From: Alphaproteobacteria bacterium
GTDB lineage: Bacteria > Pseudomonadota > Alphaproteobacteria > UBA1280 > UBA6503
Assembly (NCBI GenBank): GCA_021774615.1
Contig: JAJFIW010000036.1
Location: forward strand, 37,318 to 101,317
DNA: 64,000 bases
Direction: 5' to 3'
Program-made: the position numbers and the translations under genes
Notes under the pieces: generated by a model
What the model was told of the DNA's origin: nothing
The model's input: only the letters and a program-made list of their open reading frames with translations
The model's database searches: none
In this document: positions 3,865 through 54,944 of the stretch, in pieces
Layout of the letters: each line of letters starts with the position of its first letter
Position numbering within the stretch: position 1 is the stretch's first letter

Positions 3865-3865
3865 A

Positions 3866-8571
<4,706 letters not shown>

Positions 8572-24836: not shown

Positions 24837-24866
24837 CTACCTCTTTTTAATCTAAAGGAATAGACT

Positions 24867-25118: not shown

Positions 25119-25146
25119 CTAAAATATAATTTCTAAGGATAAAACT

Positions 25147-26337: not shown

Positions 26338-26364
26338 AATGTAAATATTATAAGGAAGAGGTAA

Positions 26365-27078: not shown

Positions 27079-27998
27079 CCCACAATCTTGCGAGTAAGGA
27101 CTTTATAAAGCAATGGCCAGCCACCGATTAGGGGGTGACGGCGTTGGAAGTCTGTGGCTTCAATGCGTTCGCCGGTGTGGCGTTCGATTTTCCAGATTAT
27201 ATAGTCTACAGCGCCATCAAAAGTGAGCGGGGCTTTTATAAGGCGTAGTAGTGTTACCAGCTTACCGCTTAAGCGCCTAATTGGTGTGTTTAGTTTTTTA
27301 AATAGATGCTGCTTAGAGCTAGACTGTATAGCAAACTTGTTGTTATCTTCTTTTCTTAATAACTTAGGGTTATTTTGGGCAAAAAGTTCGGTGCATTTAT
27401 CAAACCGTGTTGGCGATGCATCGTATATAGAGTTTTGCCTTGCTTTTGACTCGCTCCGCAATTCTGACCCATATGTGTCGGCCATGCCTGTGGTCCAGAT
27501 TTCTTGTGGGGTAACTGTGCCTTGTAATAGTGGGATACTGCGGCGGTGGAATGTTTCTACTGCCATTGCTAAAGAGTCAATAACTTTGTTTTCTCTATGT
27601 TTGCCACGTGCCCAAACAAGCCTGCAAGGCTGCGAGAACCTTGCCCATATACTTGGTGCAACACTCCAACCATTAGCAGCTCTTTCAAACTGCTTAACAG
27701 TCATAACGGCGTATTTACAACGTAGAGTTTTGCCATCATGGGAAATTTCTTTGTAGTAAACATTGGGTGGTAAAATAGCACCCCAAAAACGGTGGCTTAG
27801 TGGTGAGGATGCAGCTTTAAAGCTATCGACTAGTAAGTAAAAATCCATAACAGTGTCGTCGGCTAGTTCTTTCCAAAGGCCAGAACCATAAAACATAACT
27901 GCTGCTGCACCATTATTGCCTTTATAGATGCTTTCAGCCATTGCGATAACTTCGCCTTTGCAAGGGGTAAGGCATTCGTGCTTTATAAGGTCGCGCAT
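27075..27998 (-). CDS. Nucleotidyltransferase-fold protein, possibly Tam41/Mmp37-like (phosphatidate cytidylyltransferase-like)
   Basis: Minimal NTase motif (YGSGLWKELADDTVMDFYLLVD: GS...D.D). The size and helical C-terminal half resemble the eukaryotic mitochondrial CDP-DAG synthase Tam41. This is a low-confidence family call. Confidence 0.35.
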   Translation of the reverse strand: MRDLIKHECLTPCKGEVIAMAESIYKGNNGAAAVMFYGSGLWKELADDTVMDFYLLVDSFKAASSPLSHRFWGAILPPNVYYKEISHDGKTLRCKYAVMTVKQFERAANGWSVAPSIWARFSQPCRLVWARGKHRENKVIDSLAMAVETFHRRSIPLLQGTVTPQEIWTTGMADTYGSELRSESKARQNSIYDASPTRFDKCTELFAQNNPKLLRKEDNNKFAIQSSSKQHLFKKLNTPIRRLSGKLVTLLRLIKAPLTFDGAVDYIIWKIERHTGERIEATDFQRRHPLIGGWPLLYKVLTRKIVG

Positions 27999-28006
27999 AA
28001 AAAAGG

Positions 28007-28969
28007 CTAGGCCTTTCCTAGAGCAAAAGTAAATGGCTTTTCTATACTAACCGAGATTGGGGCATCTTCAGATGCTTGGTACATTTCGCCGTCAAGTGTC
28101 CACTCTCCATCAAAACTTAGGTCGCAACTATCTGTACGGAAACCAATGCAGCCGTCATCTTTTTTTGGGTCAAGAGGGTGTTTACCGAAAAGTAAGGTTG
28201 GTAAATGGTGGATAAACCGTTTGTATGGGTTAAATACACCCATAACTGACATCCCACCTTTACCTTGTTGTTGGGGCTTTATGCCTAGCAGCAGTTTATC
28301 TAGCGATGTAATTGTGAGAAATACAGTATCTACCTTTTGGGTTGTAGAGTTGTGTTTAATAGTTGTAGGTGTTGGTTTTAATAATAAATCTTCTGTTGGT
28401 TTTCCTTGTGCTAAGCGCCATAGCATAATTGCCATAGTTACGCTTTCGCTAAAAGTGCTATTAAAACCACGGTCATGGAGGTTTTTACGTGTTTTATGGA
28501 TAACCCTAGGGATGGCAGATGTACCAAGGAAAAAACCGTATAATGGAGTTTTTCTAGTGTCTGATTTTACTGCAATTGGAGCACGAGAAACAGTTTTAAC
28601 AATACCTTCATCAGCCCATTGCAAAAGGTCTAGTATAGGTTGGTTCGAGTCGCCACTAAAACCAACATCTTTATGGGCCATATTGGTTGTGCCTGCATCA
28701 TAAAGGGCTATGGTAGGCTCTTTTTTGAATAGTTTTTTTGCCCGTAGCTCTGTCATAACGGTATCTAGTGTGCCATCGCCACCAATAATTGCTAGGTAAT
28801 CTGCATTTTTTGCTGCTATATCTTCGAGAGCTTGGGGGATGTCATCTACCGAGTTTGTTTGTTGAAAAACAATGTTCTTAGCATTGCGGACGCTATCTAT
28901 ATGGCTATGGATAGCTCCACGCCTTTTTTTACCGCTATTAGGGTTGTAAATAACACCAATAATTGCCAC
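28007..28969 (-). CDS. Lipid kinase of the DAGK_cat family (diacylglycerol/sphingosine/ceramide kinase-like)
   Basis: N-terminus IGVIYNPNSGKKR... and the catalytic GGDGT motif (IIGGDGTLDTV). This is the YegS/BmrU/LCB5-type fold. Confidence 0.7.
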   Translation of the reverse strand: MAIIGVIYNPNSGKKRRGAIHSHIDSVRNAKNIVFQQTNSVDDIPQALEDIAAKNADYLAIIGGDGTLDTVMTELRAKKLFKKEPTIALYDAGTTNMAHKDVGFSGDSNQPILDLLQWADEGIVKTVSRAPIAVKSDTRKTPLYGFFLGTSAIPRVIHKTRKNLHDRGFNSTFSESVTMAIMLWRLAQGKPTEDLLLKPTPTTIKHNSTTQKVDTVFLTITSLDKLLLGIKPQQQGKGGMSVMGVFNPYKRFIHHLPTLLFGKHPLDPKKDDGCIGFRTDSCDLSFDGEWTLDGEMYQASEDAPISVSIEKPFTFALGKA

Positions 28970-28973
28970 AGGT

Positions 28974-30146
28974 TTACCTCTCTAACCATGATATAACACG
29001 GCCACCTGTTAAAACTTTAAATTCAGCCTGTATAATCTGTAGTAAGTGTACCAGTAATGAGGCAAAAGTCCAACCAGCAATTGCCCAAACAGCCCAGTCT
29101 GGGCGGTTTATAACAACACAAGCTGTCATTAGCAGCATGTTTGGGTTGCGACGGGCTGTAATTAGCCTGAAGAAACTATCAAACTTACGCCAAATATGCA
29201 TATGGATATGGAAACGAACAATAAAGTACCCCTCTAATATGCGTTGTGCCACATAGCCACCAACAATAACTATAAGTAGCATATTAAGAGTTTCTTTTGG
29301 TAACTCCATGCCCACATGTACTAGCCCGTAAGCCCAAGCTACATACCAAAATGGTGGGTGGATAAGGTCTGTACCGTGATCTAGGATATTCCCTATTTTT
29401 GACGATGTAAATGTAACCCTAGCAAGCTTGCCGTCTACAGTGTCAAGGAATGTCATAATCCAGCCAGCTAGTAGACCTAATGCATATTGCCCTTCCCAAA
29501 AGAGGAATAGAGCATAAAACATTAGAATTATGCCAGCAATAGTAACCATATTAGGGCTTATATTTGCTTTAATACACCATTTAGTTACAACCATTGCAGG
29601 GCGAGGCCAAAAATATTTAGTAACAAAGTCTGTTACACCTTTATATGTTCCCATGAAAATTCGGTGTTCTGTTTGTTTAAGAGTCTCATCATCAAGCTTC
29701 AAACAGTAAGGAGCTTCTTTTTTGCGCAAATCCGAGTCAAAGTTACCGCCAATAGTAGCAGTTGTTTTGGCCTCCAACCCTGTAGGGATATCATTTTTGC
29801 CTTGTAGCCATTTTATTGCAGCAGCAGCTTGTTTTGGTATGGTGTGCACTGCTAGCGGGACATTATTGTCTGTCAAAACTGTTTGGGTACTGTCGATAAG
29901 ACCAGATAAAATAGGTTTGTCGTATGCATAGTCTGTCATTATTAGAATAATGGTATTATTACTGGGTACAGTGTTTAAATCTGATTCTTCAATGACTTCT
30001 ATATTCATATTGCTAAATATGCGGCGTAGGCGTTCAGCACCACTTAGCCCCCAAACTTTAGGGGAAATGTTAGTGCCACGGTTCAATAAAACCACCGTAA
30101 TGGCATTTAGTTGTGATGGTTGTTTGACATTTGCAGTATTTTTCAT
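28974..30146 (-). CDS. CDP-alcohol phosphatidyltransferase-family membrane enzyme with an extra N-terminal soluble domain (fusion)
   Basis: Exact CDP-OH PT signature DG(x2)AR(x8)G(x3)D(x3)D (DTVDGKLARVTFTSSKIGNILDHGTD) in the membrane-embedded C-terminal half. The N-terminal ~150 aa soluble domain may be a cytidylyltransferase-like module, as in archaeal IPCT/DIPPS fusions. Confidence 0.75.
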   Translation of the reverse strand: MKNTANVKQPSQLNAITVVLLNRGTNISPKVWGLSGAERLRRIFSNMNIEVIEESDLNTVPSNNTIILIMTDYAYDKPILSGLIDSTQTVLTDNNVPLAVHTIPKQAAAAIKWLQGKNDIPTGLEAKTTATIGGNFDSDLRKKEAPYCLKLDDETLKQTEHRIFMGTYKGVTDFVTKYFWPRPAMVVTKWCIKANISPNMVTIAGIILMFYALFLFWEGQYALGLLAGWIMTFLDTVDGKLARVTFTSSKIGNILDHGTDLIHPPFWYVAWAYGLVHVGMELPKETLNMLLIVIVGGYVAQRILEGYFIVRFHIHMHIWRKFDSFFRLITARRNPNMLLMTACVVINRPDWAVWAIAGWTFASLLVHLLQIIQAEFKVLTGGRVISWLER

Positions 30147-30184
30147 AACAATGACTTTACCTAAATTAAGGGATACATAAATTT

Positions 30185-31039
30185 ATGTTATTTGCACACA
30201 TTACTGATATTCATTTACCGCTTACTAAAGCGAAGCCGTACGAACTTATCAGTAAGAGGGTTTTATCGTATCTATCTTGGCATCTCAAGCGCAAAAATCA
30301 TCATATAGACGAAGTTACTAATTTGTTGTTAGAAGATATGCGTTCTTTTAAACCTGACCATATTTGTGTTACAGGTGATATTACCAACCTAGGGTTGCCC
30401 TCTGAAATGGCGCAAGCTAAGGTATGGCTTGATAACTTAGCCCCTGTCGAACAAATTAGTTTTGTTCCTGGCAACCATGACGCGCTTGTTTACTCCGCAG
30501 AAAAAAGAATTAAAGAATTTTTTGGCAAATGGATGATTTCTGATGACAGTAGTGCAGAATTACCATTTTTACAGGTTAAAGGTAATATAGCTTTTATTGG
30601 TGTAGACTCGGCCATTGCTACAAAGCCTTTTTCTGCTAGAGGCAAGGTAGGCAAAAAACAGATGGCAAGGTTAGAAAAAATTCTACAGGAAACAAAAGAA
30701 AAAGGCTTGTATCGAGTTGTTCTTATTCACCACCCTCCATTACTTGACATGGTCGAGAAAAAACGAAAAAGCTTGATTGATGCTCCAGAGCTAGAAAAAG
30801 TCTTGGAAAGATCAGGTGCTGAGCTAGTAATACATGGGCATAATCATATCCCCATTCACCGTAAAGTTGGGCAAACAGATATTTTCGGTGCAGGGTCTGC
30901 TTCTATGGTTGACCCAGACGGTAAAGGGCTTGCTCACTATAGTATTTACAGTATTGATGATAATAATAAGTTAACCGTAGAGCATCGGGTTTATGACTTA
31001 GACAGTAAAAAATTTGTTGCCTATAAATCACACGATTAA
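30185..31039 (+). CDS. Metallophosphoesterase (calcineurin-like phosphoesterase)
   Basis: Motifs DIHLP, VTGDITNLG, GNHD, and a HGHNH region. Confidence 0.75.
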   Translation: MLFAHITDIHLPLTKAKPYELISKRVLSYLSWHLKRKNHHIDEVTNLLLEDMRSFKPDHICVTGDITNLGLPSEMAQAKVWLDNLAPVEQISFVPGNHDALVYSAEKRIKEFFGKWMISDDSSAELPFLQVKGNIAFIGVDSAIATKPFSARGKVGKKQMARLEKILQETKEKGLYRVVLIHHPPLLDMVEKKRKSLIDAPELEKVLERSGAELVIHGHNHIPIHRKVGQTDIFGAGSASMVDPDGKGLAHYSIYSIDDNNKLTVEHRVYDLDSKKFVAYKSHD

Positions 31040-31130
31040 TATTTTTTCGGGTTTTTATAAAAATACTGTATACAAAAGTATGTTTATTGTGGCATAAAGA
31101 CATTTGTAAATATGGAGAAATTTTTGGTCT

Positions 31131-31901
31131 ATGAAAGCTATTATTCTTAGTGCAGGGCAAGGCACACGATTATTACCAATGACAGAACAAACACCTAAGT
31201 GTTTACTGCCTTTAGCTGGTGGTACAAATATACTTCGTTGGCAGCTAGACCAACTAGAAGAAGCTGGTATTAAAGAAACTATCGTAGTAACAGGTTTTCA
31301 TGCTGATAAAGTTTGCACAGAGCTTGCAATGCCGCGAGCCTTCATGAAAACAAAAGCAGTTTATAACCCATTTTTTAAAGTAGCCGATAACCTTGGTAGT
31401 GTTTGGATTGCACGTCAAGAGATGACAGAAGACTTCATCCTACTTAATGGTGATACTCTATTTACAACCGATGTTGTACAGCGCCTTATTGCTAATGCTC
31501 ACCAACCAATAACAGTTACAGTTGCTTATAAAGACAGATACGACTCTGATGACATGAAAGTTACCTTAAAAGACGAAGGTATTGTTCATTCAATCGGTAA
31601 AACTATTGATATGAGCAATGTTGATGCTGAGTCCATCGGTATGATTATGTTCCGTAACCATGGTAGTAAAACATTCCGTGAAGCTGTAGAAACAGTAATG
31701 ATGGATCAAACATCATTAAAAAGATATTATCTGTCTGTAATCGATATGCTTGCAAAAGGCATTACTATCGGTACAGCAGAAGCACTACAAGAAGAGTGGT
31801 GCGAGGTTGACTTCCCGCTTGACTTTGAAAGAGCGCAAAAAGCCATTACTAACTGGCAGTCTATGATGAGCCCTTCCATTCAAGGTGCTGTCACAGCTTA
31901 G
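31131..31901 (+). CDS. Nucleotidyltransferase (NTP_transferase family; LicC/phospho-sugar or phospho-alcohol cytidylyl/nucleotidyltransferase-like)
   Basis: N-terminal signature MKAIILSAGQGTRLLPMTEQTPKCLLPL. Confidence 0.7.
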   Translation: MKAIILSAGQGTRLLPMTEQTPKCLLPLAGGTNILRWQLDQLEEAGIKETIVVTGFHADKVCTELAMPRAFMKTKAVYNPFFKVADNLGSVWIARQEMTEDFILLNGDTLFTTDVVQRLIANAHQPITVTVAYKDRYDSDDMKVTLKDEGIVHSIGKTIDMSNVDAESIGMIMFRNHGSKTFREAVETVMMDQTSLKRYYLSVIDMLAKGITIGTAEALQEEWCEVDFPLDFERAQKAITNWQSMMSPSIQGAVTA

Positions 31902-31909
31902 TTTAGTTA

Positions 31910-32710
31910 CTATTGACGACTATTAAAGATCTGGCGCACTAGCGTCAGGTCTTCTTTTTTATCTACATCAATAGCAGCTTCAGGAGTTTGCATAAGCTTA
32001 AGGTAAATGTTGCACTTTGTTAGTTTATTAAGGCGTTTTATAATATTTTCTCTGCGTAGACTGCCCATCATATAGCGTAATAAAACAATAAAGCCCACAA
32101 CAAAAGCTAATTTTATTGGGGTTTTACGGCTGTTCTCAGCTTTTTGCCAGAAATTAGCTACATTGGCTGATTTTGGCTGATTAAATAAAAATAGGTTACA
32201 ACCCCCAATCGCACCATCAGCAAAGCTCAGGCGGGTACGTTTAACTTGTGGGTAGGCATTTTCTACTATATCTACTTTGGCTATTGCTGCTGTAAAATCA
32301 GCCTCTAAGGTTGCTTTATCTTGAATAAACTCGTCAAGGATCTGGTGGTCTAATAAGGGGTGGTCGGCGGTTGTAACTAAAACAGGTTTTTTTATGTCTT
32401 TAAGCCCCATAATAATGCTTTTACAAGGCGTTGTTCCCGTTTCTATAATGCGTATCTTGCCTTTATTTAGTAACTCGTATAGAAGGGGAGCTTCTTCTGA
32501 CATCGCAAACTCTTTTGAGATACTAACCGTTATACCAGCAGTTTTTGGCCATGTATTTAAAGTATGTAATACACGGTCTATCATTGGTGTGCCTGCAATA
32601 TCTACAAATGCTTTGCACAGCTTACCTTCGCCTTTGGCTATAGGGTCGCCACTTTGGCGGCTACCTGCAAGTAATAAAATATTAAATTTTTGCTCTGTTT
32701 CTTCGGGCAT
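31910..32710 (-). CDS. MobA-like/IspD-like nucleotidyltransferase (NTP_transf_3 family)
   Basis: N-terminus ILLLAGSRQSGDPIAKGEGKLCKAFVDIAGTPMIDRVL, matching the glycine-rich loop of the small cytidylyl/guanylyltransferase family. Confidence 0.5.
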   Translation of the reverse strand: MPEETEQKFNILLLAGSRQSGDPIAKGEGKLCKAFVDIAGTPMIDRVLHTLNTWPKTAGITVSISKEFAMSEEAPLLYELLNKGKIRIIETGTTPCKSIIMGLKDIKKPVLVTTADHPLLDHQILDEFIQDKATLEADFTAAIAKVDIVENAYPQVKRTRLSFADGAIGGCNLFLFNQPKSANVANFWQKAENSRKTPIKLAFVVGFIVLLRYMMGSLRRENIIKRLNKLTKCNIYLKLMQTPEAAIDVDKKEDLTLVRQIFNSRQ

Positions 32711-32712
32711 AA

Positions 32713-33840
32713 TTAGGCAATACCTTTTTCATATATACGATATTTTTTATTAAGGGTACCGCCAACAAACTCGATGATTTTGCTCATTGGTTTGTTGTCT
32801 TCTAGGATCCATGACAGCTCAACTTGTTCAAAACTTTTCTTTTGCCCAATTTCATGGATATGCACAACTAGTGCTGCAGCCAGTGCACCGCCTAGGGTTG
32901 TTCCTTGGTGCTCTTTACGAATGCCCATTAAAACAACACGCCCACCTTTTGTACCACGAACCTTTAGACGCCAAAGCAGCTTAAGCCACCCAAAAGGGAA
33001 CAAGCTTCCTTTTAAGTCTTTAATAGCTTCGTTTACATCTGGTAAGGCAATAATCATTCCTGCGGATTTACCATCAACCGAAATAATTCGTGCGAGATCT
33101 GGATCTATAAGTGGCTTTAGGTTTTTGGCCATGTAGCTTATTTCTTCTGCAGTCATTGGGGTGAAACCCCAGTTATTTGACCAGGCATCGTTAAAAATAT
33201 CCATAACTAGTTTTAGCTCTTGGTCTAAATTTTTAACATCTATTGCTCGCTCTTGTACTTTAGGGTTACGCATAGCATATTTTGCCATACGCTTTGCATT
33301 AGCAGGGAAAGGGTTTGCAACCTCAAGGTTATAAGCAAAAAGATCTTGAACTTTTTTATAACCATCTTTTTCTAGAGATTTTGCATACCAAGGCTTTGCA
33401 TAGTTCATTAGTAGGCGTGCAGAGCTATCAAAGCCTTCCACTAACAAACCAACCTCATCGTTAATAGATAAGCTATAAGGCCCCGTTACTTTTTTTATAC
33501 CTTGCCCTCTAAGCCACTCTTCAGCTTCGATTAGTAGTGCTCTTAGTGTGGTTTCGTCTGCGGCTTCTAAGCAACCAAAGTGGCCAGTGTTCTTAGAGTC
33601 TTCCTCTTGGTGGTCAACCTGTGCACTAATCCGCCCTACAGGCTTTCCTTCAGGGTTATAAGCAACAAATAATTGGCAATCAGCATGGTCAAAAAAGGGG
33701 TTTTTCTTTGGGTTTAAATGTTCTTTACGTTCCATTGTAAGTTGCTGCACGTAGTTTTCATCGTCCTGATATAAATAATTAGGAACATTGATAAAATCAG
33801 TCAGACATTTATGGCTATTTGCAGAACAAACCTTAATCAT
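32713..33840 (-). CDS. GNAT-like N-acyltransferase, candidate bacterial ceramide synthase (bCerS-like)
   Basis: 375 aa with a C-terminal GNAT-type acyl-CoA binding motif (VVLMGIRKEHQGTTLGGALAAAL). The gene is co-located with the Spt/ACP/reductase genes and a sphingolipid-type hydroxylase. The functional call is by context. Confidence 0.4.
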   Translation of the reverse strand: MIKVCSANSHKCLTDFINVPNYLYQDDENYVQQLTMERKEHLNPKKNPFFDHADCQLFVAYNPEGKPVGRISAQVDHQEEDSKNTGHFGCLEAADETTLRALLIEAEEWLRGQGIKKVTGPYSLSINDEVGLLVEGFDSSARLLMNYAKPWYAKSLEKDGYKKVQDLFAYNLEVANPFPANAKRMAKYAMRNPKVQERAIDVKNLDQELKLVMDIFNDAWSNNWGFTPMTAEEISYMAKNLKPLIDPDLARIISVDGKSAGMIIALPDVNEAIKDLKGSLFPFGWLKLLWRLKVRGTKGGRVVLMGIRKEHQGTTLGGALAAALVVHIHEIGQKKSFEQVELSWILEDNKPMSKIIEFVGGTLNKKYRIYEKGIA

Positions 33841-34625
33841 TAACTAGCAAGCTTTCTTGTTGGTTTTTTGCGGTCAACACCTTCTATGGCAGATCTCTCT
33901 TCATCTAAGTCTGGAGTTAGTCTTGCGACCCATGGGTACAGTCTAACTTCTTCGCCAGTGTAGCCAAGGTTAAATACAGTTGGGCTTTTACCACCTTGGT
34001 CTTTTGCTGATGGTTTAAATGTACCAAATAGCATGTCTGGCCAAAAGGTAATAATACCAAAGTTAACATTTTCGTTGAAAAAATGGTGCTGTAGGTGCCA
34101 ACGCTTAATTTTTCTGAAAAATGCTGTTTTTGGCTCGTAGTTTAAATGTTGCCCACAATGGCAAAACTCGTAAATACAAGTCATGATGATGCCAGCACTA
34201 ATTGCGGTTGCCATACCGGCCAACCCACCGATAGCATAGCCAATAGGTGATGTTGCAATAAAAATTGTAGGTAGTGTTGTGTACAGCGCGCCAAAAAGTA
34301 CTTTAAGGTCGTAAGGGTCGCGGTGGTGGTCAAAGTGGATACGTTTCCAAGCGGTTGCTGTTATCTTAGAGCGATACAGGAACTGACCATGCAGTATATA
34401 GCGGTGTAGCAAATACCAAACCATCGGGTAGGCGACTGCTACTGCTAGTATTATATAACCAGTAGTGCTTGCTTCAATCCCCCAATGCCATGCCAAATAG
34501 CCGCTAACTGCTGCCAAAACTAGGTAAATATGAATATCTAAGTACATAAAAAATGCTACAAAAAGGTCTTTAAGGTTCATTTCGTCAAGACGATAGTCTT
34601 GTTTCCAAATGTTAAGTGCTTTCAT
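33840..34625 (-). CDS. Fatty acid hydroxylase superfamily membrane enzyme (sphingolipid/sterol desaturase-hydroxylase-like)
   Basis: Di-iron histidine boxes HFDHHRDPYD, HCGQHLNY and HLQHHFF, with 3-4 TM helices. Confidence 0.75.
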   Translation of the reverse strand: MKALNIWKQDYRLDEMNLKDLFVAFFMYLDIHIYLVLAAVSGYLAWHWGIEASTTGYIILAVAVAYPMVWYLLHRYILHGQFLYRSKITATAWKRIHFDHHRDPYDLKVLFGALYTTLPTIFIATSPIGYAIGGLAGMATAISAGIIMTCIYEFCHCGQHLNYEPKTAFFRKIKRWHLQHHFFNENVNFGIITFWPDMLFGTFKPSAKDQGGKSPTVFNLGYTGEEVRLYPWVARLTPDLDEERSAIEGVDRKKPTRKLAS

Positions 34626-37434: not shown

Positions 37435-37658
37435 TGTAAAAGCCCTATGTTTTGTTTCCCATATACAAGTGATGTGTTCTTTTTTTATAAAAACAAGCCC
37501 CTTAGAGACAACAAAATGAGGATAGGGGTAGGGGATTTATTTTATAATTACATTCTGAATACTTGAAAAACTAAGAATAATCCCAACAATAAGCAGTACA
37601 TACAGAAACATCTTTATTTATTTTTATATTTTTGGGCATTGCCCGAGGAAAATTAATC

Positions 37659-37904
37659 ATGAACAAAAGAAATAAAAGAAATAACCAGAAGCCTAAATTG
37701 TCATTTCAGGTAAAAACAACTAATGGAACCGTAAGTTTTTATGGCCCATACTTGTTATGCTTTATATTGGCTTTTATGCTTTTCTTTGCACTTAACGGTG
37801 CAGGTTGGTTTTTATCCCTGTTTTTAGGGGGATTTTCTGGTTTATTGACTGGGGTCACAGCAATGGCAGCATATGCTGTCTATTTAACTGAACCTAAACA
37901 TTAA
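37659..37904 (+). CDS. Small membrane protein, tandem family member 1 (82 aa from the conserved start)
   Basis: Start chosen at the ATG preceded by the conserved AGGAAAA RBS. Basic N-terminus MNKRNKRNNQKPK, then two hydrophobic helices. Confidence 0.5.
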   Translation: MNKRNKRNNQKPKLSFQVKTTNGTVSFYGPYLLCFILAFMLFFALNGAGWFLSLFLGGFSGLLTGVTAMAAYAVYLTEPKH

Positions 37905-37924
37905 CGAAAAAACGTTTAATCGTT

Positions 37925-37951
37925 CCCCGTCTCTGGCGGGGTTATTTTTTT
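37925..37951 (+). terminator. Rho-independent terminator ccccgtctctggcgggg + T-tract
   Basis: Seen directly, 20 nt after the stop of member 1. Confidence 0.7.
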
Positions 37952-38104
37952 GTGGTGACTAATGAGAAGAACCATAGAAACCCCCATAAAAAATAATAAG
38001 TACAGACACTTTAAAATATCTATAACCATCCCTATAATGAAGTGTGAACATAGAAACATCTATTATTTTTTTAAATTTTGGGTATTGCCCGAGGAAAATT
38101 AATT

Positions 38105-38302
38105 ATGCAGAAAAAAGGAATCATTATGTTTAATGGCCCATATGTGTTGTTTTTTATGGCGCTTTTTGTGGTCACCTTTGCAACCAATGGAGCTAGTATG
38201 GTTGACTCTCTAACTTTCGGGAGTTTTTTTGGTTCCCTTTTTGGGGCTACAGTTATGGCAGGCTATGCTAAGCTTAGTTATAGCTATTACCCTGATTATT
38301 AA
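38105..38302 (+). CDS. Small membrane protein, tandem family member 2 (65 aa)
   Basis: Conserved RBS/start context. FNGPYVLFF resembles FYGPYLLCF of member 1. Confidence 0.5.
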   Translation: MQKKGIIMFNGPYVLFFMALFVVTFATNGASMVDSLTFGSFFGSLFGATVMAGYAKLSYSYYPDY

Positions 38303-38383
38303 TTCCACACACAAGTAGAATGGTGGATTTGCCAGCATTTGCTCAAGTAATATGCTTTTTTAACGAAAAAACGTTTAATCGTT

Positions 38384-38410
38384 CCCCGTCTTTGGCGGGG
38401 TTATTTTTTT
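38384..38410 (+). terminator. Rho-independent terminator ccccgtctttggcgggg + T-tract
   Basis: Near-identical to the terminator at 37925. Confidence 0.7.
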
Positions 38411-38551
38411 GTAGTAACTAATGAGGAAACACCTATCAAAAATAGGTATAGATACTTTAAAGCACCCATAACCATCCCTATAATAAGTAGTACATACAGA
38501 AACATCTTTATTTATTCTTAAATTTTTGGGCATTGCCCTAGGAAAATTATC

Positions 38552-38812
38552 ATGAAACAAAGACACAAAAGGAACAAAAAAACAGTATCTGCAAAAAGCG
38601 TTACTTGTACTTTGCAGTTTCAATGGTGGAACCTTTTAGGTTTTGCTGGTTTGGCTTATTTGTTTACAGATAAGGCCATAGCATCTGGAGCAGAATTTGC
38701 TCCTGCCATTATAAATGGTCTGCTCAACGCATCTGCATTAACAATTATCGGAGTCGGATTGATCCTAATAGTATGCGGGTTATTTGGTAGAACTGTTGTT
38801 TTACTGAAATAA
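38552..38812 (+). CDS. Small membrane protein, tandem family member 3 (86 aa)
   Basis: Conserved upstream 5'UTR. Basic N-terminus MKQRHKRNKK, then two TM helices. Confidence 0.5.
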   Translation: MKQRHKRNKKTVSAKSVTCTLQFQWWNLLGFAGLAYLFTDKAIASGAEFAPAIINGLLNASALTIIGVGLILIVCGLFGRTVVLLK

Positions 38813-38850
38813 GGCTCTTAACGAGAAGCGATTTTTTATTTATCGTTTCA

Positions 38851-38877
38851 CCCGTCACTTGTGGCGGGTTTTTTTTT
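38851..38877. terminator. Terminator cccgtcacttgtggcggg + T9, likely bidirectional (also downstream of lptG)
   Basis: Seen directly between convergent genes. Confidence 0.65.
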
Positions 38878-38883
38878 ATGGTG

Positions 38884-39975
38884 CTACTTAGAAAAGCGTG
38901 ACTCTTTCCATAATGTATAGGTAATAAGGGCTATACCAAATATTATCGATGGCAGCCATACGGCCAAAGTAGGGGGGAACTCGCCACCTTCACCAAAGGA
39001 TAAGGCAATTCGCTCGCCTACAAAAAATAAAAACCCGATTATAATAATACCTGCACTAAGCACTGTTTTATTTGTGTGCCGAGGGCTCATAAATAAAAGT
39101 GGGACTGCGATTAAGATCATAATTAAAGTGCTGAATGGCTGGGAGAACCTACGTTGCAGCCATGTATCATAGTAATAGTTGCGGCTATCAGTTAGGTGGT
39201 TGGCTGTTGTTAGTGCTAATAGCTCGGGAAGGGTCATTTCATCAATTTTTTTATTGAAAACAGCTAAATCTTCTGGGGTAGAATTTAAATTTATAGGGTG
39301 TTCTTTAAAGCTAGAGATTTTGCCCGAATCTAAGTTTTTCTCGGTTACGTCGTGTAATATCCATTTAGAATTTGCATCGTAAGTAGCTTTACTTGCAGTG
39401 GTGTATGTTTCTAGCCTACCTAGTTTATCACGCTCAACTAATTTAATATTGAGGAGAGTACTTCCAGTATCATTTGCATCTTCAGCAAATAGGATAAGCT
39501 CATCAATTGTAAACCAAGCAGGGTAGCGGCTGATATTTGTCTGAGCTGTTACTTCTCTATAGTCGTTATTAGCCCAGATGCGCAGTTTCTCTGATGTATC
39601 GAGTACTACCGTGTTAAGAAATATAAAATGTAACGTTGCTAAAAATATACCGCCACCAATAAATACGCCTACAATACGTAGCAAACGTATGCCCGAACTC
39701 ATTATGGCGGTTATTTCTAGGTGGCTGTGGAACCGACTATATACAGACATTGCAGCTAACATCCCAGCCATAGGAATAACCAACGAGATTATCTGTGGTA
39801 AACGTAGTATGGCATATAGCCCTGTGGCCTCAAAAATTGGCATGCCTCCACCGAGGATACTATCGCTCTGGGCTAGAATATCAAACACTAAAAAAAGCAA
39901 AGCTAATACCAATGAAAATGCCAAAGAGGCATTAATAAAATGCTTAAGTAGATAGTATCGTAAAATTGAAGACAC
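38884..39975 (-). CDS. lptG: LPS export ABC transporter permease LptG
   Basis: 363 aa YjgP/YjgQ-family permease with a periplasmic beta-jellyroll insert, adjacent to lptF. Confidence 0.85.
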   Translation of the reverse strand: MSSILRYYLLKHFINASLAFSLVLALLFLVFDILAQSDSILGGGMPIFEATGLYAILRLPQIISLVIPMAGMLAAMSVYSRFHSHLEITAIMSSGIRLLRIVGVFIGGGIFLATLHFIFLNTVVLDTSEKLRIWANNDYREVTAQTNISRYPAWFTIDELILFAEDANDTGSTLLNIKLVERDKLGRLETYTTASKATYDANSKWILHDVTEKNLDSGKISSFKEHPINLNSTPEDLAVFNKKIDEMTLPELLALTTANHLTDSRNYYYDTWLQRRFSQPFSTLIMILIAVPLLFMSPRHTNKTVLSAGIIIIGFLFFVGERIALSFGEGGEFPPTLAVWLPSIIFGIALITYTLWKESRFSK

Positions 39976-47914: not shown

Positions 47915-47944
47915 AAAACCCCAGCACATAATACTGGGGTTTTG
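47915..47944 (-). terminator. Terminator (aaaaccccag...ctggggtttt) downstream of cspA
   Basis: 5-bp GC stem plus T-tract on the minus-strand reading, 15 nt after the cspA stop. Confidence 0.65.
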
Positions 47945-48413: not shown

Positions 48414-49610
48414 TTAAGCAGTTTTCTTGCTTGGAACAGGCAATAAGTGTTTTTCGCTCTCATCACGATGTTTTTTTAGGTATTTCATAAAAGGTGTGCC
48501 ACCTGTACCAACATCACTCGGGTTACCAGCTAAACTATTTTGTTTATTAATGTATGATGCTGCATATTCTAAATGTAGAGCACGGAACTGGTGCATTTGG
48601 CTAAGGCAAGCGTTATATAGCTCGGTCAACTCTATGTTTTCAGTTTTTTCTACAAATGCTCTTAAACCGCTGCGTTTTGCTACTTCTTCAATAAAACGAC
48701 GGTGTAAAACTGGGCGATAATCGTGCAATTCGTTTAAATATTGGCGCAGAGGGTCGTTAGAGTGCATAACATTAAATAAAGCATCCATTGTTGGCACAAT
48801 AGAGCTTTGCGAGCCTGTTTGACCACGGAAACCTTGGATCTCTCCTTTAAATTTATCCACACCTTCATAGATCACGCCACCTGGTAGGTCAGGGTTGTCT
48901 TGCCAGCCGTGGATATAGGGGCGGACACGGGTAAAGTAGGTATATGGGTCGCAGCGTTCTACCATGCGTGCCATAGTTGGGTTTATATTTTGCCATGAGG
49001 CAAGTATTTCTTTAAGCCCTGCAATTACAGCTTGTTCGTTGCTGGCGTCTACACCTTCAAAAATAGATGGGATTGCTGCTAGTGCTTGGCCAGCTTCGGC
49101 CTCAATCTCCACATGGATCATTTTAAACCAGTTTTCGTCAATCCCGCTCGAAAAATGTTGCATCATGTAGATGTTCTCTACGGTTATTCCACCTTTTTTG
49201 TCAAGCATGCTCCAGTTGTCTAGCACGTAGCATGAGTAAGGCAGAAGAGGGAACTGTTCTAGTTTTTCAGCAACAAGGCAAAAGGGCACACTAATATTAC
49301 GGGGGATAATATGGTTGGGTTCATCCTCACCCCATACCCAGCTTTGGGCAAAGTACGAGTAGTAAACCATAGCGTTTCTAAGTTGCTCGTTGGTGGCTGT
49401 ATTAACAAAACTAGTTACGTCAATTTCAGGGATAGTTTTAAGATAACGGCGCACCACACCTGTGGCCATCCACTCGGGTAGCCATTTTGCGGCTTCAATG
49501 ATTGGGTTAAATAGCTCTGGCATTTGTACAGTTACAGGGTCGTACTTACATAAAAATCCACGCTCTTTAGAAACATCAAACTTAGTAATATCAAAATGTT
49601 CGGTCATCAT
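48414..49610 (-). CDS. Indoleamine 2,3-dioxygenase-like haem dioxygenase (eukaryote-like)
   Basis: 398 aa. Blocks are collinear with human IDO1: IPRNISVPFC vs LPRNIAVPYC; IHGWQDNPDLPGGVIYEG vs LSGWKGNPQLSDGLVYEG; FRGQTGSQSSIVPTMD vs FAGGSAGQSSVFQCFD; LRQYL vs MRRYM. Confidence 0.8.
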   Translation of the reverse strand: MMTEHFDITKFDVSKERGFLCKYDPVTVQMPELFNPIIEAAKWLPEWMATGVVRRYLKTIPEIDVTSFVNTATNEQLRNAMVYYSYFAQSWVWGEDEPNHIIPRNISVPFCLVAEKLEQFPLLPYSCYVLDNWSMLDKKGGITVENIYMMQHFSSGIDENWFKMIHVEIEAEAGQALAAIPSIFEGVDASNEQAVIAGLKEILASWQNINPTMARMVERCDPYTYFTRVRPYIHGWQDNPDLPGGVIYEGVDKFKGEIQGFRGQTGSQSSIVPTMDALFNVMHSNDPLRQYLNELHDYRPVLHRRFIEEVAKRSGLRAFVEKTENIELTELYNACLSQMHQFRALHLEYAASYINKQNSLAGNPSDVGTGGTPFMKYLKKHRDESEKHLLPVPSKKTA

Positions 49611-49812
49611 CTATCCCCTTTGTATAATTTTTGTTCATTATTCTCTTTTTTTTAATAATGGGCAAGTGAAGTTGGAACCTAATTATGCTATATATATTAT
49701 ACGAGAGAGAATTGAGCTTGACTTATGTATTTACCAAAGTTAGAAAATCAAACCTGTAAGTACTATCTCTTTTCTTTTTTAACCTTTATTAAATTTATAG
49801 GAAATATCTCTT

Positions 49813-51228
49813 ATGGAACTTAAAACACCAAAAGTAATTGTTATAGATGATATCCACCCTGAAGATGGCGCAATGCTACAAGCGCTTTATTCTCGGAGCC
49901 CTGCAGGTGTAGAATACCACCTTGGAAAAGTTAAAAAAGCTGGTGCCGGTAAGTTTATGAGCCAATATTACGTTGGTTATGGTCATGCTTCTATTGGCGA
50001 TTGTGGTGTTACAAACATCTTCGTTGAGAATTACTCAATGCTAGCGTGTAAGGCAATCCAAGATAACCCGCTTTACTCGGGGCAGGAGGCTTCAACCCGC
50101 TACTTAGATTTTTCAGCACAACCTGCTGTTGACCCTTATAACACCCCATATACACGTTCTATACTCGATGGTTGGCTGTCTATTTATAATACATGGATGC
50201 CAAAGGTAGAAGCAGCAATAGCAGAGAAATACCCATTCTCTACCGACGCTTACAAAAGCGAAAAAGCGTGGCGTAATGCTGTGCAGGTTCGGGCGTTCGA
50301 CACTATGCGTTCGTATTTGCCAGTAGGTACAACAACCTTATTTAGCTGGACAACTAACCTGCGCCAAGCTCGGGATAAAATGATGAAGCTAAAATCCCAC
50401 CCATTGCCAGAAGTAAGGCAAATGGCTGAAACTATTTTTACCCAACTGGTTGATAAATACTCGAACAGTTTTTCTGGTGATGAAATGCAGAACCAAGGTG
50501 GTCGCTATACCAAGCGTGATGCCTATAATGCTGCTGAGGCAACCCGTGAAAACTATGAAAGCTTTGCCGACATTAAAACTCGTCTAAATATTTCAGACTC
50601 CGAGCAACAAGCGCTACTTGACGGCGCACTAATAGCTCGGAAAAACTTGCTAGATGTTGACGGTATTAACCGTATTGAAAAAGATACATTATCTGCTCGC
50701 CCGCAAGGCGGGGTTATGCCTCGGAGGCTAGCTGCTTACGGTAATTACACTATGGCATGCGCTATAGACTTTGGCTCGTACCGAGATTTACAACGTCATC
50801 GCAACGGCATTGCACCATTACCATTGATAGAGCCAACTTTTGGTATGTTCAAATGGTACACCGAAGAGTTGGCAAGTTTACTTGGCGACAGTTATGCATC
50901 GCTAGAGGCTGCAACAAATGACTTGTTCGATAGAATTAAAAATCTTGAACAAGCTGGCATTACTCCAGACCCATTGTTAACCCAATACTTATTACCAATG
51001 GGAACAACTGTTATTTGCTCGCTAGCTTATGGCGTGCCACAAATGGTCTATGTTGGTGAATTGCGCTCGGGTAAAACAGTGCACCCAAGCTTGCGCCCAA
51101 TTGCACATAATATGCTACGTGTATTATCTGAAGATTTCCCAGCCCTTAAACTATATGGGGATATGGACATTGACGGCTGGTCCGAAAAACGTGGTTCGCA
51201 AACTATCAGCGAGAAAAAAGCTGGTTAG
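49813..51228 (+). CDS. Hypothetical 471-aa protein with weak resemblance to the ThyX/Thy1 family
   Basis: The N-terminal third (GHASIGDCGVTNIF...YSGQEASTRY) loosely resembles the ThyX core, and an RHR tripeptide occurs later (DLQRHRNGIA). The protein is about twice ThyX length. Low-confidence family call. Confidence 0.45.
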   Translation: MELKTPKVIVIDDIHPEDGAMLQALYSRSPAGVEYHLGKVKKAGAGKFMSQYYVGYGHASIGDCGVTNIFVENYSMLACKAIQDNPLYSGQEASTRYLDFSAQPAVDPYNTPYTRSILDGWLSIYNTWMPKVEAAIAEKYPFSTDAYKSEKAWRNAVQVRAFDTMRSYLPVGTTTLFSWTTNLRQARDKMMKLKSHPLPEVRQMAETIFTQLVDKYSNSFSGDEMQNQGGRYTKRDAYNAAEATRENYESFADIKTRLNISDSEQQALLDGALIARKNLLDVDGINRIEKDTLSARPQGGVMPRRLAAYGNYTMACAIDFGSYRDLQRHRNGIAPLPLIEPTFGMFKWYTEELASLLGDSYASLEAATNDLFDRIKNLEQAGITPDPLLTQYLLPMGTTVICSLAYGVPQMVYVGELRSGKTVHPSLRPIAHNMLRVLSEDFPALKLYGDMDIDGWSEKRGSQTISEKKAG

Positions 51229-51287: not shown

Positions 51288-52028
51288 TTACTGTTTGGTA
51301 ATCGTTACGGTCAAGTTTGGGCAAATTTTAATACTATCAGCCTCTTTTATGGCTTCACATATAATGTCAGTGTCAACCATGAGTTCGTCATCGGCATTAC
51401 TGTCTTGAATTTGCCGTAATAAAGAAAGCATTATAGTGTCGCTACCTTTAATTGCAGTATAATCGTACTCGATGCCATCGTTAAAGTTTTTAATAATGAT
51501 GTCATCTGGCCAAGTGTAACTAATGTTGATATTAGCTTTTACAAGCTTACCATCAGCAGAGGATAGCGTAGTTTGTTCTTGCCATTCTCCATGCATATTT
51601 TTTACAATGGTAATTTCTTCGCCCCCCAACCAAGTTGGCGGGTAGGTGCGATACTTTTCACTAATGCTAATAGTTCCATCTGCATGGATTGCAGCATCAG
51701 TAATATTAACTTGCGTGGAGCTAAAAAATAACATAATAGCTATCGTTGCTCCAAAACCTAAACTAATAGTGTACTTGTTTAGTATTGAGCATATTGCTAG
51801 GAACCCTGCCACAATAAATACAAGTAATGACACTATTAAAGTGAAATCTTGGCTGGATTCTGAGGCGTATCCATAAAATATGAATTGCCACAAGAAAATT
51901 GCTGCTACTAGTGCAATACCAGTAAGGTGTATGGCGATTTTCAAAAATGTTTTGAAAAAATCTGATTCCATAATATTAGCGGCATGGTTTGACATATTTA
52001 CCTCCAAAGGTAAAAAAGAAAAAAGCAA
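51288..52028 (-). CDS. Membrane-anchored paralog family protein, member 1 (conserved C-terminal C-x8-CP-x-LTVTIT motif)
   Basis: 246 aa with N-terminal TM helices. The C-terminal periplasmic-type domain is homologous to 52865-53632 (YPPTW/YPPW; WQEQT; LRQI.DS; ICPNLTVTIT vs GCPQITVSIT). Confidence 0.55.
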   Translation of the reverse strand: MLFSFLPLEVNMSNHAANIMESDFFKTFLKIAIHLTGIALVAAIFLWQFIFYGYASESSQDFTLIVSLLVFIVAGFLAICSILNKYTISLGFGATIAIMLFFSSTQVNITDAAIHADGTISISEKYRTYPPTWLGGEEITIVKNMHGEWQEQTTLSSADGKLVKANINISYTWPDDIIIKNFNDGIEYDYTAIKGSDTIMLSLLRQIQDSNADDELMVDTDIICEAIKEADSIKICPNLTVTITKQ

Positions 52029-52066
52029 ACAAATCCCCCATATTTTGAGAGGGATTTGTTTTGTGA

Positions 52067-52717
52067 TTACTGTGCAGTGTTAACTGTTATGGTTAGCTTA
52101 GGGCAAGTTGGAATTGGTGTACCTGCCATCATTGCAGCGCAAACAGCGCTTGTATCAATGTTCAGGTTTTCTACGGTATGATCATTATCTGCAATTTGCA
52201 CTAATACGGCAGATATAATAGTATTGGCGTTAACCATACTCCTGTAGTCAATCTGCTTTCCAGCATAGAAATTAGAAACTAAAAAACCATTTAGCCACTG
52301 ATAATCAATGTTGATATCTATTAACTGCTGATTTTCTAGCAAAACCATCTGCTGGTTTATGTTTCCATGTGTGTGTGTTATTAAATGTATATTTGGCTTT
52401 GGGTGGTATATGGCAATATCGGTATCTTGATGATGTGCAATATTTATACTGCCAGACTTATTACCAATTAAGACAGAATCTGTTGGGGTAGCTATAATCG
52501 CAGTTAACGCTATAACAGCAATGGTAATCGCATAACCAAGCATTATGCCGACCATAGTTTTATCTGACCATCGCATCATTATAAGGAATGATACAATAAC
52601 CGCTGGTAGCATCATCCATGGTGTGGTGTAGTCTTTGAAGTGCCACTGCCAAAAGTGTGCAGCTACTACTAGAAATGCAATAACAACTATAGATATAATA
52701 GTTTTTAAATATTTCAT
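52067..52717 (-). CDS. Membrane-anchored paralog family protein, member 2 (divergent)
   Basis: 216 aa with N-terminal TM helices. The C-terminus (AVCAAMMAGTPIPTCPKLTITV) matches the family motif. Confidence 0.5.
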   Translation of the reverse strand: MKYLKTIISIVVIAFLVVAAHFWQWHFKDYTTPWMMLPAVIVSFLIMMRWSDKTMVGIMLGYAITIAVIALTAIIATPTDSVLIGNKSGSINIAHHQDTDIAIYHPKPNIHLITHTHGNINQQMVLLENQQLIDINIDYQWLNGFLVSNFYAGKQIDYRSMVNANTIISAVLVQIADNDHTVENLNIDTSAVCAAMMAGTPIPTCPKLTITVNTAQ

Positions 52718-52825
52718 GATAATCTCCGAGAGAGAATGTGAAAAGAAAAGGGAAGAAAAAATAATAGATATTATTGAGAGAATTTATAATAGCTATGGCA
52801 CTTTGTGTCAACATGCCATTACGTA

Positions 52826-52861
52826 AAAAGCCACCCTCTGTTGTAGAGGGGGGCTTTTCTG
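52826..52861 (-). terminator. Terminator (gccaccctctgttgtagaggggggc + T-tract) downstream of paralog member 3
   Basis: Seen directly, 4 nt after the stop at 52865. Confidence 0.6.
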
Positions 52862-52864
52862 TTT

Positions 52865-53632
52865 CTATTTTTCTCTAGTAATAGAAACCGTTATTTGAGG
52901 GCAGCCTTCAAGGCCTTCCATTTTCTGCAACTCTGCACATGCATCTAATGTATTAATTCTAATATTATCAATACTTTCAGTGCTATCTGCAATTTGTCTT
53001 AATATAATAAGCATTATAGGAGAGTCATTTGATGAACTCCAAGTATAATTGCGCATTATATTTTTATTAAAATCAGAAAGGATAATTTCTTTTGACCATT
53101 CGTAGTTGATACTAACTATGATAGGTATAAGTTCTTCATTTTTTAGAACTTTTGTTTGCTCTTGCCATTGACCACGGACATCTTTTATTACATAAAAATC
53201 ACCTTTAGCCCATGGTGGGTATAAAGACTCTGTAATATGAGTAATAACTACAGTTTCACCATTGTCAGCTGTACGGAGCAATGTATCTTCAGGTGTTACA
53301 TATGTTCCAAGTGAGGCAATAATAGCGGCAATTATTGACCCTAGAAGGGAAACCAATGTTATATAAGGTGTCTTCTTACTTAAAAAATATGAGCCTACCA
53401 GCATTATAGTTCCTGATAATAATATTCCTGTTACTGTGCTATTGCCTATAATTGGGTATTCCCAAAATAGAGACAATGCAGCAACAAGTACAACTAATAA
53501 CCACATTATTATTTTTGCAAATACATAGACAATATGTGGAACATTTTTTAATAAAGATTCAGTTTTTTGCATAAAACCCTCCGATAAGGGGTTAGAAAAA
53601 GAAAAACAAACAGATGAGATATATTTATACAC
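52865..53632 (-). CDS. Membrane-anchored paralog family protein, member 3
   Basis: 255 aa with 3 N-terminal TM helices and the C-terminal conserved domain. Confidence 0.55.
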   Translation of the reverse strand: MYKYISSVCFSFSNPLSEGFMQKTESLLKNVPHIVYVFAKIIMWLLVVLVAALSLFWEYPIIGNSTVTGILLSGTIMLVGSYFLSKKTPYITLVSLLGSIIAAIIASLGTYVTPEDTLLRTADNGETVVITHITESLYPPWAKGDFYVIKDVRGQWQEQTKVLKNEELIPIIVSINYEWSKEIILSDFNKNIMRNYTWSSSNDSPIMLIILRQIADSTESIDNIRINTLDACAELQKMEGLEGCPQITVSITREK

Positions 53633-53730: not shown

Positions 53731-54756
53731 TTAAAACCCGTGGGGGTTTAATCTAATTAGCTCATTGTGCCATATGGTAAATGGGTGTGGCTTTCCGCTT
53801 TTGCGTGACCTAATCTCACGCTCTACATAATTGACCAACCCTTTATAGTAGTAGCTTCGTGTTTCTGCGTTTATCATGCCGAAGCCTTGCATAGTATTTA
53901 TAAATAACAAAGCAAGGGTTAATACATCATGGCTACCATAATCAATAATACGTTGACGATGAGCAGGCCTTTGGAAATAAAGATTAGCAACTTTCGAACC
54001 ATCCATAGTATCAGAGTCATCTTCACCCTGTACTTTACCAGGAACATTCTGGATTGCAGCATAGTCTGCTTGTTTTGTTCTTGCAGAAAATCCATGCTCA
54101 CCTGCAATAGCTTTCATTAAGTCTAGATTTAGTGGGGTAAATCTGCCAAACAAATCTTCTTCTCCTTTGTGTTTTGCACGGGCGAAGAATTTAGAAAGTA
54201 GCTCATTGTTATTACTACTAGCTATAGGTGTCCCAGATGCTATAGATTCTGGAAACCTACGATTAGCACGCATCAGAAATACAGGCATATCAAAACCATG
54301 ACCATTCCAAGTCAGCAGTACAACTGTATTGCCTTTCTCTTGGTCTTTAACAATATCTTCCATTAAAGCCATAATGGCGGAACGTTCTTTCTTTAGACCT
54401 TCTAAAAGCCATTCAGTACGCCCATTGTCTTTAACACTGCCAACACTTTTTGGTAATGTTTTTGGCAATGGCTTTGCAATATAATTTATCATTTTATAAT
54501 TAGCAGAATTACCTGCCTCAAGTGAAAATGAAAATCGTAAGCAAGGCAATGCAACAATTTGCTGGAAAGCAAGTGGGAACATAGGATTTTTTGCATCTGG
54601 CTCAAACCGCTCTTTACGAAAAGTATCTATGATGCCTTCGTAAGTAGAAGTAGCAGTAAATTTTATGCATAAAGCATTCATCAGAGCCAAAACATCTGGC
54701 ACTGTTTCCGAGTCAATACAATAAATTGTTGCATTGGTGGGGAAGTTCTTAATCAT
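53731..54756 (-). CDS. Stand-alone DEDDy-type 3'-5' exonuclease (PolB-exo/RNase H-like fold)
   Basis: Exo I IYCIDSETVPD, Exo II WNGHGFDMPVF, Exo III YGSHDVLTLALLF. Start at 54756 (AAGGAG RBS 7 nt upstream) rather than the ORF extension to 54822. Confidence 0.65.
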   Translation of the reverse strand: MIKNFPTNATIYCIDSETVPDVLALMNALCIKFTATSTYEGIIDTFRKERFEPDAKNPMFPLAFQQIVALPCLRFSFSLEAGNSANYKMINYIAKPLPKTLPKSVGSVKDNGRTEWLLEGLKKERSAIMALMEDIVKDQEKGNTVVLLTWNGHGFDMPVFLMRANRRFPESIASGTPIASSNNNELLSKFFARAKHKGEEDLFGRFTPLNLDLMKAIAGEHGFSARTKQADYAAIQNVPGKVQGEDDSDTMDGSKVANLYFQRPAHRQRIIDYGSHDVLTLALLFINTMQGFGMINAETRSYYYKGLVNYVEREIRSRKSGKPHPFTIWHNELIRLNPHGF

Positions 54757-54944
54757 AATAAGCTCCTTTAATGGGGCAAGAAAAGGGAAGAAAAAAATAA
54801 GAATATATAATTTGTAAACCATACGTTTTTTTATGGGTATCTGTCAAGCTGATGTATCTTTAAAGAAATGTGTTTTATTTGTATGGTTAGCAAGGTAAAT
54901 TAAATGCTTGAGCAGCGAATTAAAAAATAATAGGAAAACAGCTG

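Follow-up and report, generated by a model that had tools for sequence, protein, structure and literature searches.

A stand-alone alphaproteobacterial gene for a probable haem oxygenase of the bacterial distal-His clade of the indoleamine 2,3-dioxygenase family

The 64-kb stretch of alphaproteobacterial DNA analysed here (the window, taken as a whole) contains an open reading frame whose product resembles human indoleamine 2,3-dioxygenase 1 (IDO1), which raises the question of whether the gene is a eukaryote-like sequence with a role in host interaction, an entry point into kynurenine and NAD metabolism, or a member of an established bacterial family. We favour the third answer, with a probability of about 0.8: the gene probably encodes an IDO-family haem oxygenase of a known, mainly alphaproteobacterial clade that has a distal His and includes the Erythrobacter enzymes, and it stands alone. 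The reading frame has an ATG start, 398 codons and a stop (Table 1). Its product is matched by Pfam profile PF01231 (IDO) with E=2.4e-83 and 280.6 bits (cut-off 26), the match extending over protein residues 9-387 and profile positions 3-411 of 412. A phmmer search of PDB sequences returned human IDO1 (4e-49) and IDO2 (5e-49) and no other family, and BLASTP alignment with human IDO1, for which the human sequence (residues 1-403) was checked against 5ek2 and 2d0t, gave 28% identity over 375 columns (E=5e-57). TDO (PF03301) is absent from both the Pfam output and the PDB sequence matches of the window protein, and no NCBIfam model matches it. Three blocks that an earlier note on this DNA had described as collinear with human IDO1 are all present, PRNISVPFC aligning with PRNIAVPYC, IHGWQDNPDLPGGVIYEG with LSGWKGNPQLSDGLVYEG, and GQTGSQSS with GGSAGQSS; the human form of the last block had been misquoted as GTGGSAGQSS, although the alignment was right. 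The assignment to the IDO family made in the earlier note thus holds, with best matches to that family and not to unrelated ones, and with the proximal haem ligand and the substrate anchors intact.

Structure prediction gives the same assignment. An AF2 model computed from a 30-sequence alignment (mean pLDDT 85.4, pTM 0.87) predicts the two-domain, all-helical IDO fold, and the sole internal stretch of very low confidence, residues 362-371 (pLDDT <50), corresponds to the mobile JK-loop of IDO1. In a Foldseek comparison of the predicted model with the PDB, the top 50 matches were all IDO1 or IDO2, with TM 0.85-0.88 and rmsd ~2.2 Å. We conclude that the reading frame, judged by its sequence, is a real gene and clearly belongs to the IDO family.

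The start codon is preceded by a Shine-Dalgarno sequence and, further upstream, by a sigma-70-like promoter candidate, a site that we infer to be the gene's own promoter; the promoter-candidate block, CACTTG...AAAAAAAGAGAATAATG, is kept in the intergenic spacers of the close relatives L081 and L087. The neighbours are as previously described, with a divergent ThyX-like reading frame on one side and cspA downstream. A signal of horizontal transfer was considered and rejected: base composition at the gene is unremarkable, GC in the 48-50 kb bin being 0.391 in a window that ranges from 0.354 to 0.440.

Table 1. Positions in the window of the IDO-family gene, its predicted functional sites and its immediate neighbours.
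Feature	Position	Strand	Basis
IDO-family haem dioxygenase CDS (probable bacterial distal-His clade), 398 aa	48414..49610	-	ORF, Pfam, PDB matches, AF2 model, Foldseek
Shine-Dalgarno AGGGGA of the IDO gene	49614..49619	-	read from sequence; 3 nt 5' of ATG
Sigma-70-like promoter candidate of the IDO gene, TTGCCC-17-AATAAT	49637..49665	-	consensus scan
Codon of His346, predicted proximal haem-iron ligand (= IDO1 His346)	48573..48575	-	BLASTP alignment
Codon of His166, distal pocket, at the IDO1 Ser167 position	49113..49115	-	alignments
Codon of Arg230 (= IDO1 Arg231, substrate carboxylate anchor)	48921..48923	-	alignment; invariant in 119 relatives
GTGGT loop, residues 368-372 (= IDO1 JK-loop G378-T382 including Thr379)	48495..48509	-	alignment; invariant
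Long ThyX-like protein, 471 aa, divergent from IDO	49813..51228	+	Pfam Thy1 E=4.2e-16; context only
cspA, downstream neighbour of the IDO gene, cold-shock domain, 67 aa	47959..48162	-	Pfam CSD E=7.9e-25; context only
Terminator-like hairpin after cspA	47943..47915		sequence scan

Relatives of the window protein are numerous, and they are bacterial. A word-indexed protein search returned more than 5,560 clusters (90% identity) at E<1e-5, and an exhaustive search of 50%-identity representatives returned 2,608 clusters at E≤1e-3 and 473 at E≤1e-30. Scanning a species-representative genome set yielded 561 confirmed stretches with IDO relatives, the best 80 of which are nearly all from Alphaproteobacteria (Micavibrio, Erythrobacteraceae, Hyphomonadaceae, Kordiimonas and assorted MAGs) at 51-59% identity, and scanning metagenomes yielded at least 539 confirmed stretches. 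The window protein is itself a singleton cluster; its closest relatives among the matches listed are from marine assemblies, at 76-77% identity, and the IDOs of Erythrobacter, Qipengyuania and Citromicrobium are 52-54% identical to it. Among the cluster members is a MAG protein from NCBI that bears the label 'Magnetococcales bacterium' and is present also in the Tara collection. With counts of this size, and with bacterial IDOs known since 2011, the statement that such genes are uncommon in bacteria does not stand. The description 'eukaryote-like' fails as well, since identity is 28% to human IDO1 as against 51-77% to hundreds of bacterial proteins, and the pocket is that of a bacterial clade, unlike that of IDO1 or IDO2. 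This disparity in identity between human IDO1 and a broad bacterial clade suggests descent within bacteria, not recent transfer from a eukaryote.

The same figures bear on a role in host manipulation, in which an intracellular bacterium would use the protein, acquired from a eukaryote, as an effector to modulate host immunity, either by depleting host tryptophan or by making kynurenines. Family resemblance to IDO1 is what such a role draws on, but the identity values point to bacteria, the relatives are environmental or marine, the N-terminus (MMTEHFDITKFDVSKERGF) is by eye without a hydrophobic signal-like stretch, and the 64-kb window is without secretion-system, reduced-genome or host-association features. 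Pfam scans of 54 of its larger reading frames, from 67 aa up, reveal ordinary chromosomal gene content: ligA, a recN-like gene, BamD, RimK, LptF/G, an RND efflux pump, HflK/C, DegP, MiaA, MscS, GST, adenylate cyclase and a lipid-synthesis cluster. With such genes around it, and with nearest relatives in marine metagenomes, Micavibrio, Erythrobacteraceae and Hyphomonadaceae, the intracellular, host-manipulating role once suggested for the gene finds no footing, and we regard the effector reading as extremely improbable. The source is probably a free-living, marine alphaproteobacterium-like organism in which the IDO gene is an ordinary inherited chromosomal gene.

Within the family, the active site defines the clade. 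The proximal haem-ligand His is not absent: window His346 aligns with IDO1 His346, and the residue is present in 119 of 119 close full-length relatives and in 113 of 114 representatives of 50%-identity clusters. Compared with human IDO1 (P14902; PDB 2D0T), to which the predicted model is similar in fold at TM 0.86-0.88, the window protein also keeps Tyr126 (window Tyr125), Phe163 (Phe162), Phe227 (Phe226), Arg231 (Arg230) and the JK-loop GTGGT, G378-T382 (G368-T372), whereas Cys129 is replaced by Tyr128, Ser167 by His166, Phe226 by Tyr225 and Gly262-Ser263-Ala264 by Gln264-Thr265-Gly266, and there is no immune context. The protein thus has His166 and Gln264-Thr265-Gly266 where the high-affinity pocket of the IDO1 type has Ser167 and Gly262-Ser263-Ala264. 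The set Y125/Y128/F162/H166/Y225/R230/Q264-T265-G266/H346/GTGGT occurs in 119/119 of the closest full-length relatives, the exception to pocket invariance being IDO1 position 227, which is Tyr in most relatives and Phe in the query and 11 others. Translated IDOs of Erythrobacter sp. SD-21, Citromicrobium, Pontixanthobacter, Hyphomonas, Kordiimonas and a Phycisphaerae MAG have an identical pocket signature, and the Micavibrio IDO differs at one position, with Tyr for Phe226.

His166, invariant in the 119 relatives, has a distal His as its counterpart in 91 of the 114 full-length 50%-identity cluster representatives. A second class among these 114 is IDO2-like, H..T..RGSA (HxFT..RGSA in 18-20/114), and the query signature, YYFH..RQTG, is not the IDO2/proto-IDO pattern of a distal Thr with a His at the Tyr126 position. 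The best PDB sequence match, 6cxu, is an engineered S167H mutant of IDO1, hence the apparent conservation at position 167 in that comparison. In TDO the distal side of the haem is occupied by a His (XcTDO His55, hTDO His76). The literature searched contained no paper on S167H or distal-His IDOs. Because the catalytic residues and the pocket signature are conserved across relatives, the window protein is under constraint and presumably works as a haem enzyme, within a large and separate 'distal-His' subfamily.

According to this assignment, the product would be a soluble, cytoplasmic oxygenase dependent on haem b. By homology with IDO1 and TDO, His346 would ligate the haem iron, and the ferrous haem would bind O2. 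An L-tryptophan-like indole amino acid would be held through its carboxylate by Arg230 and through its ammonium by Thr369 of the mobile GTGGT loop, and would pack against Phe162, Tyr125 and Tyr225, with His166 predicted to take the place above the haem that is occupied by the distal His in TDO and by Ser167 in IDO1. Insertion of both oxygen atoms at the indole C2=C3 bond would then yield N-formylkynurenine. The chemistry is expected to be that of TDO/KynA (PF03301), and the predicted distal His is TDO-like; by sequence, however, the protein matches PF01231 only and is not a TDO.

How efficiently such an enzyme would use L-tryptophan can be approached through its assayed relatives. Work published in 2011 described bacterial IDOs and assayed them (Yuasa, Ushigoe & Ball, Gene 485:22; cited in PMC4191572 and PMC4217691). 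Efficient tryptophan turnover is found only in a branch comprising the mammalian and fungal IDOs together with those of Gemmatimonas aurantiaca and Streptomyces scabiei, and the IDOs of E. litoralis and Neptuniibacter (N. caesariensis) have very low tryptophan rates (PMC4217691). The Gemmatimonas and S. scabiei IDOs resemble the window protein in being bacterial and in the same Pfam family, but they belong to the mammal/fungus branch with good tryptophan kinetics, whereas the window gene is probably of the Erythrobacter type and has no kynU nearby. The abstract of the 2011 study reportedly calls the low-efficiency enzymes 'group I' bacterial IDO, and the gene for the efficient Gemmatimonas IDO, not of the Erythrobacter type, is said there to flank kynU. 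The Erythrobacteraceae IDOs have the same length as the window protein and an identical 16-residue pocket signature (distal His, Y128, Y225, Q-T-G), and theirs too are stand-alone genes without kynurenine-pathway neighbours; what distinguishes the window is a host lineage with GC of ~40%, marine-MAG-like relatives at 76-77% identity, and a divergent ThyX-like partner. On the basis of the 52-54% identity and the identical pocket, the window protein most probably falls in the low-efficiency 'group I', and its efficiency on L-tryptophan may be low. The invariant TDO-like distal His and the fully conserved tryptophan-anchoring residues could equally mean that the clade is a competent tryptophan dioxygenase under native reducing conditions, the low in vitro rates being an assay artefact. 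Two other leads from the literature were set aside as irrelevant: one on IAA degradation concerns a Rieske enzyme, and the haem-dependent tryptophan hydroxylase Luz15 lies outside the haem-dependent aromatic oxygenase family that contains IDO and TDO.

Gene context provides a second line of evidence on function. Among the 54 reading frames of the 64-kb window scanned with Pfam there is no TDO, kynurenine formamidase, kynureninase, KMO, HAAO or nadABC. Window neighbours were compared by tblastn against 80, then 166, related IDO loci, and no kynurenine-pathway gene adjoins IDO in the 166. All-versus-all clustering of flanking reading frames from 80 genome loci likewise uncovered no pathway enzyme; the flanking frames group by host family, with dnaK/dnaJ/grpE/hrcA in Erythrobacteraceae and pst/pho in Hyphomonadaceae, and an ABC permease and a methyltransferase are other neighbours in related loci. 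Reading frames of ~390-400 aa just upstream of IDO in Micavibrio-type loci were suspected to encode kynureninase and proved by Pfam to be MltA. No biosynthetic-cluster context was found at any IDO locus examined, and neither an Rfam scan nor a tRNA scan of the window gave a match. A kynurenine operon, defined as IDO clustered with formamidase and/or kynureninase, occurs neither in the window nor in the related loci, and bacterial kynA often adjoins kynB/kynU whereas the window gene does not. Since no pathway enzyme is found among the neighbours in the window and in related loci, we conclude that the IDO gene is a stand-alone cistron across the clade and not part of a kynurenine/NAD operon. In 26 of the Erythrobacteraceae loci (L023-L078), a 113-aa HExxH-like (FIHEMVHVWQ) protein is encoded on the same strand ~116 bp upstream of IDO (for example L069, 2393..2734, +), a family-specific neighbour.

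These results weigh on the idea that the enzyme is the entry point of a canonical kynurenine pathway, efficiently converting L-tryptophan to N-formylkynurenine, either to break the amino acid down or to supply de novo NAD synthesis, the genes kynB/kynU and the rest of the pathway lying elsewhere in the genome. In favour of this idea, every tryptophan- and haem-binding residue is conserved, and the distal pocket with its His is like that of the efficient TDO (XcTDO His55); the pathway genes, however, are lacking from the 64-kb window and from the positions adjoining IDO in the 166 loci, and it is the efficient Gemmatimonas enzyme, not the Erythrobacter type, that reportedly sits beside kynU. 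Bacteria have either TDO or IDO, which suggests that one suffices for tryptophan metabolism and speaks for the idea (PMC4191572), but the assayed enzymes of this branch, from E. litoralis and N. caesariensis, have very low rates (PMC4217691). We consider a canonical pathway role possible but doubtful. The NAD/kynurenine role put forward in the earlier note is accordingly not borne out at this locus: the scanned frames of the window and the neighbours of the gene in relatives include no pathway gene, and the Erythrobacter enzyme is reported to have very low tryptophan turnover.

The most conspicuous neighbour is the divergent ThyX-like gene, separated from the IDO gene by a spacer of 202 bp. 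The Thy1 match is limited to residues 44-213 of its product, which scores 24.8 bits against TIGR02170 (thyX equivalog), below the cut-off of 87.9, and has no PDB sequence match; an 'RHR' motif lies in its C-terminal half. The canonical ThyX motif has a Ser that is absent from this 'RHR' motif. The family to which it belongs (~470 aa; 5,648 matches) is widespread in Alphaproteobacteria and Bdellovibrionota MAGs, and its members frequently carry the annotation FAD-dependent thymidylate synthase. The divergent ThyX-like/IDO pair is present in 5/5 loci that have an IDO ≥61% identical and upstream room (L081, L082, L083, L084, L087), with outer flanks that vary: CSD, NUDIX or CobW downstream of IDO, and membrane proteins or a nucleoside deoxyribosyltransferase-like gene beyond ThyX. 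It is absent from ~125 loci that have upstream room and an IDO ≤60% identical, including P0009 at 60%. A ThyX-like link as a general feature of IDO is thereby ruled out, the pairing being confined to the closest lineage. Because the pair is limited to the ≥61% loci and absent from the more distant ones, it looks like a gene order handed down in a single lineage; regulatory coupling of the two genes is no more than a possibility.

It is against this pattern that a function other than tryptophan dioxygenation has to be weighed. The protein would then be a haem oxygenase, or a haem protein of another kind, with a physiological substrate other than L-tryptophan or with a different reaction, candidates being another indole or indoleamine, a monooxygenation of the MarE or PrnB type, or O2/NO binding like that of the IDO-like myoglobins; a coupling to the ThyX-like flavoprotein encoded next to it would also be possible. 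Clade members turn over tryptophan slowly (PMC4217691), pocket substitutions relative to IDO1 are fixed (C129Y, S167H, F226Y, G262Q, S263T, A264G), and the ThyX-like/IDO pair is kept in all five loci at ≥61% identity despite their differing outer flanks. Members of the haem-dependent aromatic oxygenase superfamily, MarE and PrnB among them, are documented to differ in function, and a further precedent is IDO-like myoglobin (PMC4191572). However, the amino-acid anchors Arg230 and Thr369/GTGGT are invariant, which argues for an amino-acid substrate, the pair is missing from the ~125 more distant loci, and the loci examined have no biosynthetic-cluster context. We judge this reading unlikely. That the distal-His clade is not tryptophan-catabolic, acting on another indole or amino-acid substrate or catalysing another oxygenation, and that its member here is co-regulated with the ThyX-like flavoprotein through the shared 200-bp divergent region, also appears improbable.

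Several other features of the window are recorded here in their own right. Beyond the ThyX-like gene, at 51288..53632 (-), lie three tandem, apparently paralogous membrane-protein reading frames of 246, 216 and 255 aa, with no Pfam match and with similar C-terminal motifs (CPNLTVTITKQ, CPKLTITVNTAQ and CPQITVSITREK); relative L081 has three unannotated genes at the corresponding position (3733-6251). Next to them, at 53731..54822 (-), a 363-aa protein with a PolB-related 3'-5' exonuclease domain (PF10108, E=7e-15) is encoded, and this protein has a conserved counterpart at the matching position in both L081 and L087. At 37563..38900, a small-gene cassette is triplicated as three tandem units of ~447 bp, each with a conserved 67-nt leader (78-85% identical) and a small membrane-protein reading frame of 74-90 aa, two of the three frames beginning MGIARGKLIM; after each of the first two units comes a terminator-like hairpin, 95% identical, with the sequence CCCCGTCT(C/T)TGGCGGGG and then a run of T. 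A lipid-related run at 22108..34625 comprises an AMP-binding enzyme, an NAD-epimerase, a class I/II aminotransferase, a DAGK_cat kinase, a CDP-alcohol phosphatidyltransferase, a metallophosphoesterase, two nucleotidyltransferases and a fatty-acid hydroxylase, and possibly forms a cluster that makes an unusual polar lipid or a sphingolipid-like head group.

The preferred reading, an IDO-family haem oxygenase of the distal-His clade encoded by a stand-alone gene, makes the IDO gene of the window one more sequence in a bacterial clade already known from hundreds of genomes. Reading the gene as eukaryote-like, as a sign that the organism lives inside host cells, or as pointing to a kynurenine/NAD pathway is not warranted, and the locus adds no special leverage on the question of the distal His beyond its lineage-specific ThyX-like pairing. 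The clade is widespread and has an invariant TDO-like distal His and invariant tryptophan anchors, yet its assayed members are reported to be nearly inactive on tryptophan and the gene has no pathway neighbours at the loci examined. The role of these common distal-His IDOs in marine and soil Alphaproteobacteria is a real question, and one already recognised in the literature.
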